From Candidatus Freyarchaeum deiterrae (GTDB taxonomy: Archaea; Asgardarchaeota; Jordiarchaeia; Jordiarchaeales; Jordiarchaeaceae): a DNA stretch of 64,000 bases. This document shows positions 44,371-53,714 of the stretch, piece by piece. The notes under the pieces are model-generated. The model was not told where the DNA came from. It did no database searches and was given only the letters and a program-made list of their open reading frames with translations. Numbering within the stretch: the first letter of the stretch is position 1; each line of letters opens with the position of its first letter. The stretch is from the NCBI GenBank assembly GCA_037305845.1, contig CP147778.1:448001-512000 (forward strand), read 5' to 3'. The position numbers and the translations under genes are program-made.

Positions 44371-45588
44371 TTAAATATTGAACAAGTCCACTATATCCAA
44401 AACTGCTATATTCTCTTTTTCAGCTATTGAAAGTAGATTGTTTTCACAGAAGGGGCAAACAGTTACTATGTAATCCGCTCCAACTTCCTTTGCATCTTCC
44501 ACTCTTACTCTAGCTATTTCTGAAGCGAGATCCGGAAACGCAGATTTTACTCCTCCACCCGCTCCACAGCACCAGGCGGCTGTTCGGTTGCGTTTCATTT
44601 CCACAAAGTCTATACCTGGAACCTGTTTTATTATTTCGCGTGGAGGGTCAAAGAAATCGCAGTGGCGTCCCAAATGGCAAGGATCATGATAGGTTAATCT
44701 CTTCCCCTTGAAATCATTTCTGAGGCTCAGCTTTCCTTCTTTTAGTAGCCGCTCTAGTATCTCGGTTACGTGAACCACCTTGAAGGGTAATTCTTTTCCG
44801 TAGATTTCGGGGTAGTCTTTTTTGAGTGTTCTGTAGCATCCTGCGCAGTGTACCACCACTTCTTTGGCTTCGGCGTCCTGTAGTGCTTGAATGTTGTGTA
44901 AAACTAGTTTTTCTCCCAGCTCGCGCATACCCGTTCGCAGTGCCACTGAGCCGCAGCAATACTCTTCAGGATGTATCACAGCCGGTGTAACTCCCCCTGA
45001 AATCAGCAGTTTTATAGTTTTTTGGATGAGTTCGGGTTGCCTGTAGGGTTCGGTGCACCCCATAAAGAGTACTAGGTCGCCTTTGGATGGCAGTTCTACT
45101 CCTTCGGGTATCCAATCAATTCGTTTCTCGTGGGGTTCCATGTAGGGATTGTGCTGTTTTTCGCACCATTCCAGAACTTCCCTTTGTCGGGGCATTGGTC
45201 CGTAGCCTGCATCTACTAGGTCTGCTCGTAGTGCCTCGTAAATCTTTACGTGGTCGAGGTATCGGCCTATGTTGAGGCTGATGTTGGGGTCCATGGATTG
45301 GTGGCATGTTGCGTGGCAGTCGCCGCATGTGGTGCACTGGTATATGGCGTTGGCTAGCTCCTGGCTGGGCTTCAGTTTTCCCTCCAAGAGTCCGCGTATT
45401 ATCTGCATTTTTCCCCGCGCAAAGAAGGGCTCGAACCCCGGGGTTTGCTCCAGCACCGGGCAGACCTTGTATCTGCCTACCGTGTATCTGACTGCTGTGC
45501 GGCAGTCTCCGCAGGCGATGCATCCTATCGCTATGTCTCCGAGTTTTTTGAGGTGCCTCAGTTTCTCCACTTGTTGGGTTTTAGTCAT
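44371..45588 (-). CDS. Fe-S/CCG-domain oxidoreductase subunit (GlcF/HdrD-like)
   Basis: CIACGDC, CTTCGDC, two CCG domains, YHDPCHLGR, CPFC. Confidence 0.9.
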   Translation of the reverse strand: MTKTQQVEKLRHLKKLGDIAIGCIACGDCRTAVRYTVGRYKVCPVLEQTPGFEPFFARGKMQIIRGLLEGKLKPSQELANAIYQCTTCGDCHATCHQSMDPNISLNIGRYLDHVKIYEALRADLVDAGYGPMPRQREVLEWCEKQHNPYMEPHEKRIDWIPEGVELPSKGDLVLFMGCTEPYRQPELIQKTIKLLISGGVTPAVIHPEEYCCGSVALRTGMRELGEKLVLHNIQALQDAEAKEVVVHCAGCYRTLKKDYPEIYGKELPFKVVHVTEILERLLKEGKLSLRNDFKGKRLTYHDPCHLGRHCDFFDPPREIIKQVPGIDFVEMKRNRTAAWCCGAGGGVKSAFPDLASEIARVRVEDAKEVGADYIVTVCPFCENNLLSIAEKENIAVLDIVDLFNI

Positions 45589-47092
45589 TCTTGTCTTCCT
45601 CCGGACTGTAGAAGTGGAACTTGCCTGGGCTTAGCAGAAAGTTGGGATCCACTGTTCTCTTCGTGTCTTTGAAGAACTTGGTGAACTGTGGTTGGAAGGC
45701 GTTGGCTTCCATTATGGCTTGGCTTATGACCTCGCCCAGCCAGTAGTGCACTCCTCCGTATTCTACTTGGAAGTGTAGTCTATCCTTCCATAACTTCAGG
45801 TTGGTTTCTCTCATCTCGGGCTTGTTCCATGCGCTCATGCCTCCAACGATTACGCACTCCCCTCTTGGCATTACGTAAACTACTGCTGCTGTAGCTGGAG
45901 CCGCCATAGCGTTTGAATATTCCTGCGCCTTTTGAAGCGTGTACATATCTGAAACTTTAAAAACCTGTGGCATCTGGTCGATGGGAACCTTGTGACAGGT
46001 GGTGCAGCTGAAGTGACCCGGCATAACGCCGAAAACCCCGTGGAAGTACTGCCACTGACCCTGCTTTTTACCCACCCATTCTGCAATATTCCCCTCCTTG
46101 AGTGAAGGACCGAGTTCAACCACGTCAGGTTTCTTGAATTCCTCGTGAACAGTATCTCTCGCAATCTCAAACATCTTCTCGTTATCCGCTTCTATCCCAA
46201 CCATCATTATGGGTTTTGCGAGCATAAGGTCTTTCCAAGGCTTAACGACCTCGCTAAGCGAATAAATCATAACCACCGACGATGGCGTAATAGTTATATC
46301 CGAAACTCCCCAGCTGCACCTACGCTGAAGCGCGTGGCTAACTTTAGCCATGAATTCGTAGTCATCCGGGACAACGAAGGTGTATCCTTCTCTATACTCG
46401 GGCAGCGGGTAAATCTTCATAACCGCCTTGGTTTTGATGCCCATAGTTCCCACATCACCCATAAAGAGACCTGTAAAATCCGGACACATTCCCCATCTGG
46501 TGAAGGGTTTCTTAACGTACCTACTTGCACCGGAACCAGTGTTGATAATGTCTCCCTCAGGATTGGGAAGAACTACTTCTACTCCTATACAGTTATCAGA
46601 AACGGGGCCATACTTTGTGGAGCCGAAACCGATGGTGTTGTTTGAGAGCCCCCCGCCGATGGTGGCGCTCATACCGGAGCCCGGTCCCTCAACCCCGGTG
46701 GTGTAGCCCTTTTTGTGGAGAAACTCTATCAGTTCGCCCCACGTGATGCCGCACTCTACTACAACATTTCCCACGTCCTCGTTAAGTTCAACAACCCTGT
46801 TCATTCGCGTGAGATCAATGACAATTCCTCCCTCCACTATGGGTTTCGAGCCTCCCACGAGGTCTGCTCCGCCACCCCTCGGAACCATGGAAATCTTGTA
46901 CTTGTTCGCCACCCTGACAATGTGCGAAACCTCTTCTGCGGTTCCTGGGCGAACCACAATATCTGGCCATCTATCGGGCAGCGCGGGATCCACGTTTCGG
47001 GAATAAGCTTGCCTTACAAAATCCTTATCGGAAATGTAATCCGCTCCCAACGCATCCTCTATTTCCTTATACACTTTTTCCGTAACTAACAA
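45581..47092 (-). CDS. FAD-binding oxidoreductase (GlcD/D-lactate dehydrogenase-like, VAO fold)
   Basis: PDIVVRP, PRGGG, IDLTRMN, ATIGG, GTMGI.T, DPNFLLSPGK; TTG 47092 follows GAGGTGA. Confidence 0.88.
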   Translation of the reverse strand: MLVTEKVYKEIEDALGADYISDKDFVRQAYSRNVDPALPDRWPDIVVRPGTAEEVSHIVRVANKYKISMVPRGGGADLVGGSKPIVEGGIVIDLTRMNRVVELNEDVGNVVVECGITWGELIEFLHKKGYTTGVEGPGSGMSATIGGGLSNNTIGFGSTKYGPVSDNCIGVEVVLPNPEGDIINTGSGASRYVKKPFTRWGMCPDFTGLFMGDVGTMGIKTKAVMKIYPLPEYREGYTFVVPDDYEFMAKVSHALQRRCSWGVSDITITPSSVVMIYSLSEVVKPWKDLMLAKPIMMVGIEADNEKMFEIARDTVHEEFKKPDVVELGPSLKEGNIAEWVGKKQGQWQYFHGVFGVMPGHFSCTTCHKVPIDQMPQVFKVSDMYTLQKAQEYSNAMAAPATAAVVYVMPRGECVIVGGMSAWNKPEMRETNLKLWKDRLHFQVEYGGVHYWLGEVISQAIMEANAFQPQFTKFFKDTKRTVDPNFLLSPGKFHFYSPEEDKND

Positions 47093-47114
47093 AAAATTCA
47101 CCTCAAATTTGAGC

Positions 47115-47873
47115 CTAGTAACTTCGATTGTACACGAAAGGCAGATATTTCTCGGTATCCTCCCCAACCACTCTAAGAAGAACGGTTCCTTTAGACATTT
47201 TGGGCGTTCCTAGAGTGTAAATCATACCCATGTTCGTTACTGGTTCTATTTCGTAGAGGGGGTCTTTCTCCGATTTTTCAAAACTAATGGTTCCCGTTGC
47301 AGTGTGTACTTCCTTGGGTTCTGTGGTGATGTCGATTGCAAGAATTTCTGCCAAGCTTAGACCCTCCACGTCCGGGCTTGGAAACACCCTGAGGGAGAAT
47401 GTTGGTCCGAAACTCATGGTGCCCTCCATACTGCCTGTCAGAGTGCCCTTCATATCAACTATTTTGATGCCTTCCCTCTCTAATGTTCCCTTAACCTTGT
47501 CTCCATCCCTTTTCAGTTCTATTTTGGCTATCTTCTTGGGAAGCCCGTAAATCTCTCTCCCCCCGATCATAGCCGCGTCATTGTCAACATACATACAGGG
47601 GCAATATACTCCGTCAATGTTCCCCTGTTCTCCCGGGAAACTGGCTTGAACAAACATCGCAGACTCATTATACTTTACACCGAAGTTCGACTCGGGATAC
47701 TTTGCAATGAATACAAGTACTATTCCTTCCTTTCCAGCCTCTAGTGGCGGAGGAAGAATCTTCTGAATGGTTTCACGTTTCGAAAGGTAAATGGAGGCTA
47801 GAATCTGTGCGTTAGGCCATATATAGGGCGGCTTGGGTATGATTTCCTCGAAATCTTCTCGATAAAAACTCAA
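47115..47873 (-). CDS. Acetoacetate decarboxylase family protein (second paralog)
   Basis: LPPPLE, YNES, MYVDND, GGREIYGLPKK, DPL. Confidence 0.85.
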   Translation of the reverse strand: MSFYREDFEEIIPKPPYIWPNAQILASIYLSKRETIQKILPPPLEAGKEGIVLVFIAKYPESNFGVKYNESAMFVQASFPGEQGNIDGVYCPCMYVDNDAAMIGGREIYGLPKKIAKIELKRDGDKVKGTLEREGIKIVDMKGTLTGSMEGTMSFGPTFSLRVFPSPDVEGLSLAEILAIDITTEPKEVHTATGTISFEKSEKDPLYEIEPVTNMGMIYTLGTPKMSKGTVLLRVVGEDTEKYLPFVYNRSY

Positions 47874-48403: not shown

Positions 48404-48967
48404 CTATCCTGACAGATGTTTGTCGTAGACTGCCTGAATTCTTTGCATCAGCTCCGCGACATCTTCTGGGTTCATATCGGCCATTATTGCCTCTGTGAGT
48501 TCCCTGATATCTTCCATTTTTTCTCGGGATTCCTGCGATATGTTTATGATAGTTTGTGTGTTTCCGGAGCCGCCCATCATTTGTTGCATCATCTTGTTCA
48601 TGAGGTCCATGCCTTCGCCGGTCATCATCTGCTCCATTATTTTTCCAATCAATCCCATTCCTGCACCCATAATCTGACTAATGTCTTCTGGTGGTCCTCC
48701 TCCCTTAAACATGTCCTGCATATTTTGCAATTTCGCCATATCCTCTGGTGATAGTGAAGAGAACACCTTGTCCATCATTTTTTGCATGTTTTCCATGTTT
48801 TCTCCGCTGAATAGATTATCCATCATCTGTGGGGAGGCTGACATCATAGCATGCTTATCTTCCTCAGGGAGCTCCGAGAGTATTTGATCGATTCTATTCT
48901 CTAGATATGCCATCTTTTCTTCTTTGGACATTTTTTTGATTTTCTTAATTTCGTCGTCAGTAACCAA
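48404..48967 (-). CDS. Met-rich alpha-helical protein (STI1-like composition)
   Basis: Repeated PQMM/MQKMM/MMQQMMG helices; GAGGTGA RBS before TTG. Confidence 0.7.
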   Translation of the reverse strand: MVTDDEIKKIKKMSKEEKMAYLENRIDQILSELPEEDKHAMMSASPQMMDNLFSGENMENMQKMMDKVFSSLSPEDMAKLQNMQDMFKGGGPPEDISQIMGAGMGLIGKIMEQMMTGEGMDLMNKMMQQMMGGSGNTQTIINISQESREKMEDIRELTEAIMADMNPEDVAELMQRIQAVYDKHLSG

Positions 48968-49276
48968 AACTTTTCACCTCAGACAATATTTTCATAGTCT
49001 AATGGGGGTAATAACTCTTTTTAGTCTATTTTATTATAGCTTATCCACAGAAACAGTGTAGAAATCTCTTGCTCCTAGGGGGGATTGGAAAGGTATTTGT
49101 CGAAAGCTCTTTAATAGAGAGGAAAAAACTCACTTAACTTTCTGCATTTGTCTTTGGTGGGAAACCTTTTTCGTACTCAAAATTTATACTAAAAGGGAAG
49201 AATGAAAATTAAATATTTAAATAATAATGTAAAAGTTCTTAAGATAAACGTAGAATGAGTATTTGAGGTTGTCAAA

Positions 49277-50209
49277 TTGAGTGAAGGCTTCTTTGAGCGG
49301 AATAGGTTTCTGATTTATCTTATCATACTTGTTTTCAGCTGGGGCGCTATAACCTTTCTTTTAGACCCACTCTTGGATGAGTTATACACCTTCGTTCCAG
49401 TTCCCATATCCGAGTACTACCCCCTATCTGGGTTCACGGCTTACCTCTCCGTAGGAAGAATCTGGAGTTTCCTACTTTTGGGAGGCGTAGGCACCGTAAT
49501 GTTTTACTTAATTTTTAGAGAAATACTCGCTCAGCCTCCGGAGACCGAGAGAACCAAAAGGACTCAAATCTTGGTTGAGATTATTTTCATGGTTTTCATA
49601 TTCATATTCGTCGGCGGACTGGGCATGCACTACGTAGCAAATGAACTCCACGTTTACACTTCTCTCTTCTCTCTAGTATTGCCCTATACACCATTCACGA
49701 TAGACCCCCTAACGTTTACTAATAACCTAAATTATTTGGTGTACTTTTTCGATGAAGTTTTAGGACATAAACTCATATTCCTAGGAATATTTGGTTTCAT
49801 AGTTATGGGAACCATTCTTCAAACAAAGCACAAATATCAAAGAATTTTCACTCGCAGGGACTACTTTATATACGGGTTCCTAGGCCTACTTTTCGGCTTG
49901 GGAATGGGAGTGAGCACTGTTGAAGGACAAGCAGCATTCGAAACAATAATCTTCTCCGCCTCCATCATAATTATAATGTTAATATTACTAGCAACAAAGA
50001 AAGTACGACTGGCCGAAACAAATGGAAAAACTGTAAAATCAACCCCCTTCTACCCATTCTCCCTCCTATTCTTCGTTGGCATCGTAATCGCCATAATAGG
50101 TTGCGCCCTTTATTTCGGAACCATGCCAGCATACCCCTTTTTCATTCAACCCTCCCAGAAGGCGTTAATAAACACAGAAATACTACAATACATCCTCTCA
50201 ACCCTTTAA
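49277..50209 (+). CDS. Multi-pass membrane protein resembling eukaryotic CLN6
   Basis: About 7 TM helices; motifs SVG, G.GMHYVAN, YFFDEVLGH, VEGQ, TNG, YP..QP occur in the same order as in CLN6. Confidence 0.7.
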   Translation: MSEGFFERNRFLIYLIILVFSWGAITFLLDPLLDELYTFVPVPISEYYPLSGFTAYLSVGRIWSFLLLGGVGTVMFYLIFREILAQPPETERTKRTQILVEIIFMVFIFIFVGGLGMHYVANELHVYTSLFSLVLPYTPFTIDPLTFTNNLNYLVYFFDEVLGHKLIFLGIFGFIVMGTILQTKHKYQRIFTRRDYFIYGFLGLLFGLGMGVSTVEGQAAFETIIFSASIIIIMLILLATKKVRLAETNGKTVKSTPFYPFSLLFFVGIVIAIIGCALYFGTMPAYPFFIQPSQKALINTEILQYILSTL

Positions 50210-50515
50210 GCAGAAAAAAACAATAAGCAGAGGAATATTCTCTCTGCCCTTTTTTAAAGAAAAATCAGGATGAATTACTTGGAGTTTTTAGATGAAACTC
50301 AATGAACCAGTTTCTACTCTTCAAAATTGAAGCGTATATTAATATTTTATATTTAATAAATAATAAATATAGAAACATATTAATAGACCCTAAACAATCA
50401 TTAGATTAGTGAGTGTTAGAAAGGGAAAGAGTAATCATTATCGAAAACTTAGCTGAACCGACTTCCCAATTTTGTTAAGCTTACGCCTGAAAAATGAAAG
50501 AGGTGTATTGAAAGA

Positions 50516-52343: not shown

Positions 52344-53714
52344 TTAAGACCCTAAAAATTCAGTCATTAAACGTTGTTTTCTTATTTCGGATAATACGCC
52401 ACTTACCTGAAGCCAATACTTCATACCTATACGCATACGTGTTTTTATATGCTCCAAAGCGTTCTCCATTGTTTGGAACTTCATCGGCTCATTTCTTAAA
52501 GCATCCCTAACGCATTCTCGTACCAACCAAACTCCCAGAGGCATAAGGTTGCCCGGCAGTGTTTCCCTGAATATGACTACCGCTGCTTGCCTTCTCTCCC
52601 CAAGAAGGTGTTCCGTAACTGCAAGCCTAGCCGCATAGTAACAACCACCTATGCTCGCGTAAGTGGTTCTACCTTTGTACGGTTCCCAATCTGACGCTAT
52701 ACCAATGTTGTTACGATCCGGATTCCATAACGTTCCCGGAAACCAAGCCTCTATCAACTCATAGCTCCAGGGTCGGGGAATCATAAGGACGATAAAACGG
52801 TTCTCAAGATAATTACTCTCGTAAACCAAATAATCATTTATTAAGGGGAAATCTTTAACATCCTCTCTCAGAGTTTGGGAAATGTTGCTGTCAACCGCGG
52901 TGATGCTCCACCTTGTGGGTACCAGTTTTCTGTTGTTCTTAATCCCCATAGCGCCGACACTCAGAATTCTCTGTATTCGTGTTACCGGAAGTTTATTTTC
53001 GTACAGCATCAAGATTCCTTCAATCGCCTTAAGATCCGTGTCGAAATACACTTTATCTACTAACTTGGGTATTTTAAAAGTGCCAATGTTAATTTTTTCG
53101 AGAGGTGCGGAAGGCCCCATTGGCTGTACTTCGCTGGATAACAAGAGACGATGTTTCGGCTTTTTCTTCAAGATTATCTCAGAGTCAACAGGATTGCCCG
53201 CAAGAGCAAGTTCACGGGTGTCCGTCAGTAATTTGTTTTCGGTGTCAACCTTCCTAACGTCTGTGAGAAACATACCCCTGACAAGTTTGTACCTATAACC
53301 TATTATTTCCTCAACATCTTTTCCAAACCAGAGTTCAGGAATATCGAAAATACTTGTATCGCCCCTCTCCGGTGGAACCATCGGCCCCGCATAAACATAA
53401 GGATACCCCTTCCTACCAATAAAAGCACTAGGCGGAGAATCCCCACTTAGTTGAGTCCCATCAAAACTTTTTGACATCTTAACATAGTTGTAAAAACGCT
53501 CAAGTAAGGGGCACTTATTTTTTCCACACAGCATCTTTGTGCCCCTGCATAGAAGGCAGGTTGATTGTTGGGGGGCCGTGTAATCTATGAGTTCTGGATT
53601 GAACTCTAATGCGGTGGAATAGTCCTCTATCAAGTGGTCTATCCAGGGGATTCTTTTTTTGACCTTTTTTACAAACTTGCCTGAAACTAGGGTGTCCAAA
53701 TAGATTACTCCCAT
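52344..53714 (-). CDS. nreA: Nre family archaeal DNA repair protein
   Basis: CLLCRG..LCG..CP, SPPSAFIGR.GYP, LVPTRWSITAVD, GGCYYAARL, C-terminal PIP box QRLMTEF. Confidence 0.92.
   Translation of the reverse strand: MGVIYLDTLVSGKFVKKVKKRIPWIDHLIEDYSTALEFNPELIDYTAPQQSTCLLCRGTKMLCGKNKCPLLERFYNYVKMSKSFDGTQLSGDSPPSAFIGRKGYPYVYAGPMVPPERGDTSIFDIPELWFGKDVEEIIGYRYKLVRGMFLTDVRKVDTENKLLTDTRELALAGNPVDSEIILKKKPKHRLLLSSEVQPMGPSAPLEKINIGTFKIPKLVDKVYFDTDLKAIEGILMLYENKLPVTRIQRILSVGAMGIKNNRKLVPTRWSITAVDSNISQTLREDVKDFPLINDYLVYESNYLENRFIVLMIPRPWSYELIEAWFPGTLWNPDRNNIGIASDWEPYKGRTTYASIGGCYYAARLAVTEHLLGERRQAAVVIFRETLPGNLMPLGVWLVRECVRDALRNEPMKFQTMENALEHIKTRMRIGMKYWLQVSGVLSEIRKQRLMTEFLGS

Follow-up and report, generated by a model that had tools for sequence, protein, structure and literature searches.

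The 64,000-nucleotide stretch of the genome of the Asgard archaeon Candidatus Freyarchaeum deiterrae analyzed here (contig CP147778.1, positions 448,001 to 512,000; henceforth the window) contains a gene, on the forward strand at window positions 49277-50209, whose 310-amino acid (aa) product is almost certainly a true but distant member of the superfamily of CLN6, the Batten-disease protein of the endoplasmic reticulum (ER). The gene belongs to a long-form subfamily specific to the Jordarchaeia, and we consider it reasonably probable that its product is a homodimeric seven-transmembrane (TM) member of this superfamily that performs CLN6-like chemistry at the outer face of the membrane.

Homology to CLN6

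An exhaustive phmmer search of 1.8 billion representatives retrieved 65 relatives of the window protein and, among the 66 proteins aligned, 10 independently match the Pfam CLN6 family (PF15156), for which the gathering cut-off is 27 bits. A clade of four Promethearchaeota proteins (P0099, P0100, P0101 and P0109) exceeds this cut-off with 40-47 bits and E-values down to 2.4e-12, and hhalign aligns the window subfamily with it at 99.7% and an E-value of 4.9e-27 over 259 columns, from TM1 to the C-terminal motif. When the ten Jordarchaeia sequences are used alone, the match to the P0099 clade persists (98.4%, E 8.4e-15), the alignments spanning 231-259 columns. Superfamily membership is thereby established through profile-profile homology to proteins that themselves pass Pfam, and the resemblance to CLN6, as judged from these E-values, lies far beyond chance.

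Fold comparisons are congruent with this assignment. The AlphaFold2 model of the window protein retrieves four clusters from the ESM-Atlas with TM-scores of 0.66-0.85 (0.79-0.85 by target), three of them bacterial, one of which is 12% CLN6-annotated, and the fourth mostly from Mucoromycota. The partly CLN6-annotated cluster also ranks first in a language-model search, where its score of 0.89 lies below the trust mark of 0.9 and makes it a lead only. Searches of the PDB by sequence, with the single protein and with a profile, returned only noise, Foldseek found nothing in the PDB at E <= 0.001, and the best hit of a wide VIA-align search (Z 7.5) is inside the noise range for helical bundles, which does not in itself make the fold new. 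The homology to CLN6 put forward in the earlier note on this DNA is therefore borne out by profile-profile comparison, transitive Pfam matches and fold matches to CLN6-annotated clusters.

The direct HMMER comparison with the Pfam CLN6 profile suggested in the same note turned out otherwise. Neither hmmscan of the window protein, even at E 10, nor a PF15156 profile search of the whole host genome yields a CLN6 match; the 20 sequences of an alignment of the window clade with its Helarchaeota and Promethearchaeota relatives (A1) are likewise without one, and Pfam and NCBIfam scans of the window protein return no CLN6 and nothing else meaningful. If CLN6 sensu stricto is taken to require at least 27 bits on PF15156, the window protein lies outside it.

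Conservation of the catalytic core

Two preprints dated 9 October 2026 describe purified human CLN6 as a Ca2+-dependent epimerase that converts R,S- to S,S-glycerophosphoglycerol, acting in the ER upstream of CLN8 and CLN5 in the synthesis of S,S-bis(monoacylglycero)phosphate (BMP) (bioRxiv 10.64898/2026.10.07.757477 and 10.64898/2026.10.07.757350). The human protein has seven TM helices in an N-in/C-out arrangement and an active site facing the lumen, in which D173 and E174 are Ca2+ ligands and H178 is the proposed phospho-histidine nucleophile. Zhu et al. report that H127Y and R62H are inactive and that mutants of D173/E174/H178 and of Y182/Y223 give no rescue, while Sheokand et al. find D59A, D131A, D173A, E174A, H178A and E227A to be inactive in cells. 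The latter authors also model CLN6 as a homodimer that has two Ca2+ ions and a cavity facing the lumen, and propose that H178 forms a phospho-histidine, with the phosphate migrating between the two primary hydroxyls of glycerol. The premise of the earlier note that CLN6 lacks known catalytic activity is thus out of date. Prokaryotic relatives, bacterial or archaeal, are mentioned in neither preprint, and our literature search found no paper pairing CLN6 with Asgard.

The window gene is a single uninterrupted open reading frame (ORF) of 310 codons with a TTG start, according to the ORF listing and its translation; it is single-copy in the closed, one-contig host genome of 3.58 Mb, and orthologues with 66-77% identity share its start residues. 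By its named homologues, the host falls into the Asgard class Jordarchaeia/Freyarchaeota. The six motifs listed previously for this protein are all present in the order given: LSVG (57-60), FVGGLGMHYVANELH (111-125), LVYFFDEVLGH (154-164), TVEGQ (214-218), RLAETNG (244-250) and YPFFIQP (286-292). Human CLN6 carries PSVG, LLYYYDEYLGH, VTEGQ, RLFLDSNG and YPGVIYVPEP. These human motifs fit the spacing of H127/D131, D173/E174/H178 and E227 given in the preprints. The asserted likeness of LSVG and RLAETNG to CLN6 is positional at best: both motifs can be read in the window protein, but in the Jordarchaeia clade S58, G60 and R61 are the only invariant residues of the LSVG region, and E247 of RLAETNG is invariant but NG is not kept.

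Human residues were mapped onto the window protein by motif identity and fixed spacing. As an anchor we used a metazoan-type metagenomic exon ending in SFELLYYYDEYLGH, which matches Pfam CLN6 positions 133-152, including the DEYLGH segment, at 31.4 bits. The resulting features, all on the forward strand, are as follows.

About 50-70 nt upstream of the gene's start (+): A/T-rich stretch (sequence reading)
49265-49269 (+): GAGGT Shine-Dalgarno-like element, 7 nt before the start (sequence reading)
49277-50209 (+): CLN6-like gene, 310 aa, TTG start (ORF listing, orthologue starts)
49304-49375 (+): TM1, residues 10-33 (AlphaFold2 model, loop-charge analysis)
49385-49450 (+): extracytoplasmic beta-hairpin 37-58, part of the predicted dimer interface (alignment, model, interface)
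49412-49414 (+): E46 within this hairpin, invariant, hallmark of the long form (alignment)
49457-49459 (+): R61, invariant in the Jordarchaeia clade (group comparison, codons)
49565-49663 (+): TM3, residues 97-129, with dimer contact motif G113-G114-x-G116 (alignment, model, interface)
49628-49630 (+): H118, equivalent of human H127, near the outer end of TM3 (alignment, spacing)
49640-49642 (+): N122, equivalent of human D131, near the outer end of TM3 (alignment, spacing)
49751-49768 (+): D159-E160-V-L-G-H164, equivalents of human D173/E174/H178 (alignment; human roles from the preprints)
49778-49780 (+): F168, equivalent of human Y182 (fixed spacing from H164, codons)
49910-49912 (+): V212, at the position of human Y223, four residues before E216 (fixed spacing from E216)
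49922-49930 (+): E216-G217-Q218 at the outer TM5-TM6 turn, E216 being the equivalent of human E227 (alignment, preprint residues)
50132-50155 (+): Y286-P-F-F-I-Q291-P-S293, extracytoplasmic, after TM7, part of the predicted dimer interface (alignment, interface)
50150-50203 (+): helix at the C terminus (292-309), an extension seen only in the Jordarchaeia clade (alignment, model)

In a comparison of 93 sequences from seven groups, E160 and H164 are invariant (93/93), D159 shows one Glu exception, and E216 has no exception in the window clade and few in the family as a whole. The DE-x-x-G-H motif that in the human epimerase holds the nucleophile His178 and the Ca2+ ligands D173/E174 is present as D159/E160/H164, the EGQ glutamate E227, essential in human cells, as E216, and H127 as H118. 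Since D159, E160, H164 and E216 are kept in all seven groups and their human equivalents are needed for function, the window protein keeps the catalytic core of the human enzyme. The suggestion of the earlier note that this is an ancient, metal-dependent and lipid-modifying enzyme is accordingly supported, the human epimerase using precisely those DE..GH, H and EGQ residues that the window protein conserves. The YPF motif (Y286-S293) is kept in all long forms. Residue D30, at the outer end of TM1, is Asp or Glu in 9/9 Jordarchaeia-clade genes compared at codon level, and as a guess D/E30 may be proposed as a candidate equivalent of human D59.

Predicted architecture

The AlphaFold2 model (predicted local distance difference test, pLDDT, 86; predicted TM-score, pTM, 0.84) comprises seven TM helices, two beta-hairpins and the C-terminal helix which, together with the intact ORF, bears out the earlier description of a 310-aa protein with about seven TM helices. 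Loops rich in Lys and Arg (85-96, 185-194 and 240-257) alternate with loops free of them (34-58, 130-146, 215-217 and 281-291), so that the positive-inside rule predicts an N-in/C-out topology in which the conserved polar residues are extracytoplasmic: E46, H118, N122, D159/E160/H164, E216 and the YPF motif would all lie outside. Topologically, the extracytoplasmic face corresponds to the ER lumen. In prediction, the window protein thus shares with the superfamily its seven TM helices, a cytosolic N terminus, and a C terminus and active site on the outside.

A homodimer is predicted with a score of 0.84, the best of three controls reaching 0.00, and at least 67% of contacts recur between runs, with a partner pLDDT of at least 78; this mark was attained for 20 of the 30 proteins whose structures were solved as pairs, against 1 of the 23 solved as single chains. 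No solved CLN6 structure was found in the PDB by sequence, profile or Foldseek searches, and the predicted dimer is therefore not the recall of a template. Like the human epimerase in its model, the window protein is thus predicted to be a homodimer. Its interface is symmetric and passes through TM3, by way of the glycine motif 112-117, and further involves TM2, residues 153-161, the YPF motif and the hairpin with E46, so that the conserved motifs would come together close to the dimer axis, on the outer side.

Putative mechanism and alternative explanations

Based on analogy with the human protein, the balance tips slightly towards the same metal-dependent phosphotransfer chemistry through a phospho-histidine. 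A divalent cation would be held by D159/E160, together with E216 and N122, and H164 would attack the phosphorus of a glycerophosphodiester to give a phospho-histidine intermediate, from which the phosphoryl group would be passed to another hydroxyl. In CLN6 the receiving hydroxyl would be the other primary hydroxyl of the same glycerol, inverting sn-3 to sn-1. The likeliest substrates would be found at the outer face of the membrane, among glycerophospho-alcohol head groups or free glycerophosphodiesters. That the protein is specifically a glycerophosphoglycerol epimerase seems doubtful, and a substrate identical to that of human CLN6 is unlikely. An intact orthologue is present in all ten genomes of the host's family and order, which we count as a sign of selection in favor of a functional CLN6-like protein.

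Besides the missing direct Pfam match, several observations weigh against this reading. Position 118 is Arg in 9 of 10 Jordarchaeia-clade sequences, and human H127Y is inactive; N122 replaces D131, and human D131A is inactive in cells; the pocket tyrosines Y182 and Y223 are replaced by F168 and V212; there is no clear equivalent of human R62, with no Arg three residues after D/E30; and position 61 is Arg in the Jordarchaeia clade versus Asp or Glu in most other clades and Thr in a Helarchaeota-like group. The clustering of the conserved residues into one site, moreover, is derived from the topology and the interface list only. The gene is isolated in the window, flanked by a divergent Met-rich gene and a small family-less ORF, and has no operon partner there, nor one conserved beyond close relatives or across clades. 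Finally, the complete host genome contains no match to CLN8/TLC (PF03798) and none to CLN5 (PF15014), although the CLN5 search gave no match in any control genome either, which makes this negative weak. With no relative of CLN8/TLC or CLN5, the pair that would mark a BMP pathway is missing, and the host would have no BMP-type pathway.

Some of these substitutions can be followed at codon level. The Arg codons at position 118 are CGC in near orthologues and AGG or AGA in deeper ones, so that Arg118 is ancestral for the clade, and the window His codon, CAC, is one base from CGC, H118 being a one-base reversion to the family-wide residue. Position 122 is Asn in most prokaryotic members and Asp in a minority, and N122 could still bind metal. 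Phe at position 168 is found in the window protein alone (TAC to TTC), all other Jordarchaeia orthologues examined having Tyr. The Pfam CLN6 matches of the long forms begin at profile position 83, leaving the N-terminal region unaligned. On the whole, the alignments indicate that the pocket has been remodelled in the Jordarchaeia clade.

The alternative that survives best, unlikely as we hold it to be, is that a protein with the same superfamily descent and machinery catalyzes a different reaction, for instance hydrolysis, as a phosphodiesterase, or the transfer of a phospho-alcohol head group between molecules, to another acceptor at the cell surface, in place of the intramolecular stereoinversion of glycerol. 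The loss of the human pocket residues (F168, V212 and no R62 equivalent), the gain of R61 and, in orthologues, of R118, the lack of CLN8 and CLN5 partners and neighbors that vary by clade (GT2/GT21 and VIT1 in one, UbiA or LPG_synthase_TM in others) are all consistent with it, but the nucleophilic His, the residues that bind the metal and the Glu of EGQ are invariant from bacteria to the Pfam-positive clade, which argues for one conserved chemistry, and nothing found points to a specific alternative substrate. Far less plausible is a membrane protein without enzymatic activity, which would serve as a scaffold or a factor akin to a cargo receptor, or would use the Asp/Glu/His cluster to transport or sense metal ions. 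CLN6 was long viewed as part of an ER export or cargo-receptor complex, metal binding by a conserved acidic/His cluster need not imply catalysis, and VIT1 metal-transporter genes adjoin the Pfam-positive clade; yet human CLN6 shows catalysis as a purified protein, H178A being inactive (the two preprints), the conserved residues lie at one helix end on the outer face rather than along a transmembrane path, and the invariance of the same five residues over a very deep divergence is typical of an active site. A chance or compositional resemblance among hydrophobic membrane proteins, to which the lack of a direct Pfam match for the window protein or any A1 sequence and the sub-threshold language-model score might point, is already effectively refuted by the hhalign E-values over 231-259 columns and the Pfam scores of the relatives, CLN6 being the top family of four bacterial and many Asgard proteins, as well as by the conservation of every polar motif in unchanged order and by the fold matches.

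Comparison with the human protein and with other prokaryotic forms sets these arguments in context. Like human and vertebrate CLN6, the window protein has about 310 aa, seven TM helices, N-in/C-out topology, a site on the lumen-equivalent face and a predicted homodimer, and it shares the DE-x-x-G-H motif, the EGQ glutamate and the TM3 His (H118 for H127). It differs from human CLN6 in N122, F168/V212, R61 and the absence of a clear R62, in an extra beta-hairpin with the invariant E46 between TM1 and TM2, and in residing in an Asgard host without CLN8, CLN5 or a BMP pathway, whose membrane faces the cell exterior and not a Ca2+-rich ER lumen. The Promethearchaeota long forms (the P0099 clade, annotated as hypothetical proteins) share with it the ISE hairpin, G-x-x-x-H-x-x-x-N, [YF]-x-DE-x-x-GH, EGQ, the C-terminal YPF-x-QPSE, 259 alignable columns and a common, weakly supported (70) half of the tree; unlike the window clade, with its V212, R61, mostly R118 and no Pfam score, they pass Pfam and keep Tyr at the Y223 position and Asp at 61. 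The short forms (about 245 aa; bacteria, Odinarchaeia and a Freyarchaeota/Jordarchaeales paralogue) have the catalytic motifs, phmmer E-values down to 1e-15 and CLN6 as top Pfam family at 19-30 bits, but lack the E46 hairpin and carry F-G-G-F-x-[QE]-P-S-E in place of YPF-x-QPSE.

Distribution and phylogeny

The family profile matches 44 of 301 Asgard genomes at E <= 1e-5. Bacterial membership is established by genome G302, which holds P0063 and carries six sigma-70 genes; a short-form copy is present in 4 of 251 genomes of its phylum, with CLN6 as the top Pfam family in each case (18.9-26.9 bits), so that in this one sampled bacterial phylum the family is rare. A further candidate for a bacterial member, L021 (DATKTP010000091.1, 'Candidatus Deferrimicrobium sp.'), was rejected, being the same genome as G296/G301, which falls in the GTDB phylum of the Asgard host, and having no sigma-70; its public label 'Candidatus Deferrimicrobium' is probably wrong.

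In a maximum-likelihood tree of 93 rows, the window protein falls in the Jordarchaeia clade with support 100. This clade, like the Pfam-positive one, lies inside the long-form half of the tree, where each of the 16 named rows is Asgard. The bacterial rows group together with support 99 and belong to the short-form half. The split between long and short forms is weak (support 70), the root is arbitrary and the tree has no eukaryotic rows. The phylogeny including bacterial homologs called for in the earlier note is consequently in hand for prokaryotic rows only, and the idea of a eukaryotic signature protein stands only in part: bacterial members are confirmed and the window's clade is not the one most like eukaryotic CLN6.

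Among the short forms, three match the Pfam CLN6 profile from positions 36-60, and some metagenomic ones match it nearly whole, over positions 36-250, at 21-30 bits. Five genus-mates of the host (G064, G028, G038, G056 and G082) each have an additional CLN6-like gene, a short-form paralogue of about 282 aa, one of which (G064:C180:24415-25185; L003 1390-2238, minus strand) scores 21.6 bits on Pfam CLN6; in the complete host genome this paralogue was not found, and only the long form is present. Tandem CLN6-like pairs at some Promethearchaeota-type loci (L026 3835-5523 (+) and G293:C107:4877-6523) point to local duplication within the family.

Of the searches aimed at eukaryotic CLN6, one with the motif region gave 12 candidates, all prokaryotic, and a motif scan of metagenomes turned up one metazoan-type exon of 27 aa as well as an ambiguous split gene. 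The former is the 27-codon open stretch at L054 255-335 (-) on contig Ga0065711_1078967, with the ending and the 31.4 bits given above, and resembles a lone exon of an animal CLN6 gene, here from an environmental metagenome. The latter (L040 63-898 (+), contig Ga0113563_10172391) is a CLN6-like gene that runs across two overlapping frames, owing to either a frameshift or a short intron. With 40.4 bits over Pfam CLN6 positions 23-177 in its first part, it is the only sequence seen to match from position 23, and it has Tyr at the human H127 position.

Genomic context

In four genus-mate loci (L012, L014, L015 and L016), the CLN6-like gene has two immediate neighbors in the same orientation, an F420-type luciferase-like oxidoreductase gene (about 380 aa) upstream and a CrtI/phytoene-desaturase-family gene (about 506 aa) downstream. 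The window locus (48968-49276 and 50210-50515) lacks both; the oxidoreductase was not searched for elsewhere in the genome, and of the CrtI-like gene the host has only a 28%-identical paralogue (G000:C1:212125-213588). Elsewhere in the family, a divergent UbiA-family prenyltransferase gene lies 12-15 nt downstream of the family gene at two Asgard loci (L021, 6618-7649; L023, 3873-4943), P0030 (ENA ERZ24794666; Logan ERR13325269) is preceded at a distance of 29 nt by an LPG_synthase_TM (PF03706) gene, and the gene of the Pfam-positive Promethearchaeota clade is flanked by a GT2/GT21 glycosyltransferase and VIT1. As weak hints, these neighbors lean to membrane-lipid or envelope chemistry. A role of the CLN6-like gene as a replacement for glycerol-1-phosphate dehydrogenase (G1PDH) was also considered and set aside as unneeded, the genome having an Fe-ADH_2 family gene (126.8 bits) that is a candidate G1PDH.

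Upstream of the CLN6-like gene, the window encodes at 48404-48967 (-) a 187-aa protein rich in Met, Glu and Asp, with runs such as MMxxMM and a weak DUF760 match; this Met-rich gene is kept upstream of the CLN6-like gene in four genus-level loci. Elsewhere in the window, at 45581-47873 (-), a gene for a GlcD-like FAD-binding oxidase (528 aa) shares about 50 nt with one for an acetoacetate-decarboxylase-family protein (252 aa), suggesting that the two are translationally coupled. At 52344-53714 (-), a full-length archaeal Nre gene (Nre_N and Nre_C) adjoins a radical SAM/DUF5131-like gene and a cupin gene, an arrangement kept in genus-mates.

Implications

CLN6 was an orphan Batten-disease protein until October 2026, and prokaryotic homologs that keep its catalytic core would show that the underlying chemistry is older than the eukaryotes. 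Interest in the window gene itself is tempered by its divergent clade, its remodelled pocket, the lack of pathway context and the occurrence of the family in bacteria, but compact prokaryotic homologs with the catalytic core should be tractable for a first experimental structure and for work on the phospho-histidine mechanism. A broader and, in our view, improbable extension is that Asgard CLN6-like enzymes shift a phosphodiester between the two primary hydroxyls of glycerol, on lipid head groups or scavenged glycerophosphodiesters at the cell surface, thereby editing sn-3 versus sn-1, and that eukaryotic CLN6 and the sn-1 glycerols of BMP were inherited from an Asgard long form. Behind it lie the observations that the highest Pfam CLN6 scores among the full-length prokaryotic proteins tested are those of the Promethearchaeota clade and that the named long-form rows of the tree are all Asgard; also bearing on it, some short forms cover more of the length of the Pfam profile. 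Were it true, stereochemistry would be edited in a lineage that straddles the archaeal/bacterial lipid divide, sn-1 being the 'archaeal-handed' configuration. This enzyme class alters the handedness of glycerol phosphate, and it is because this feature separates archaeal lipids from those of bacteria and eukaryotes that its presence in Asgard archaea deserves biochemical attention.

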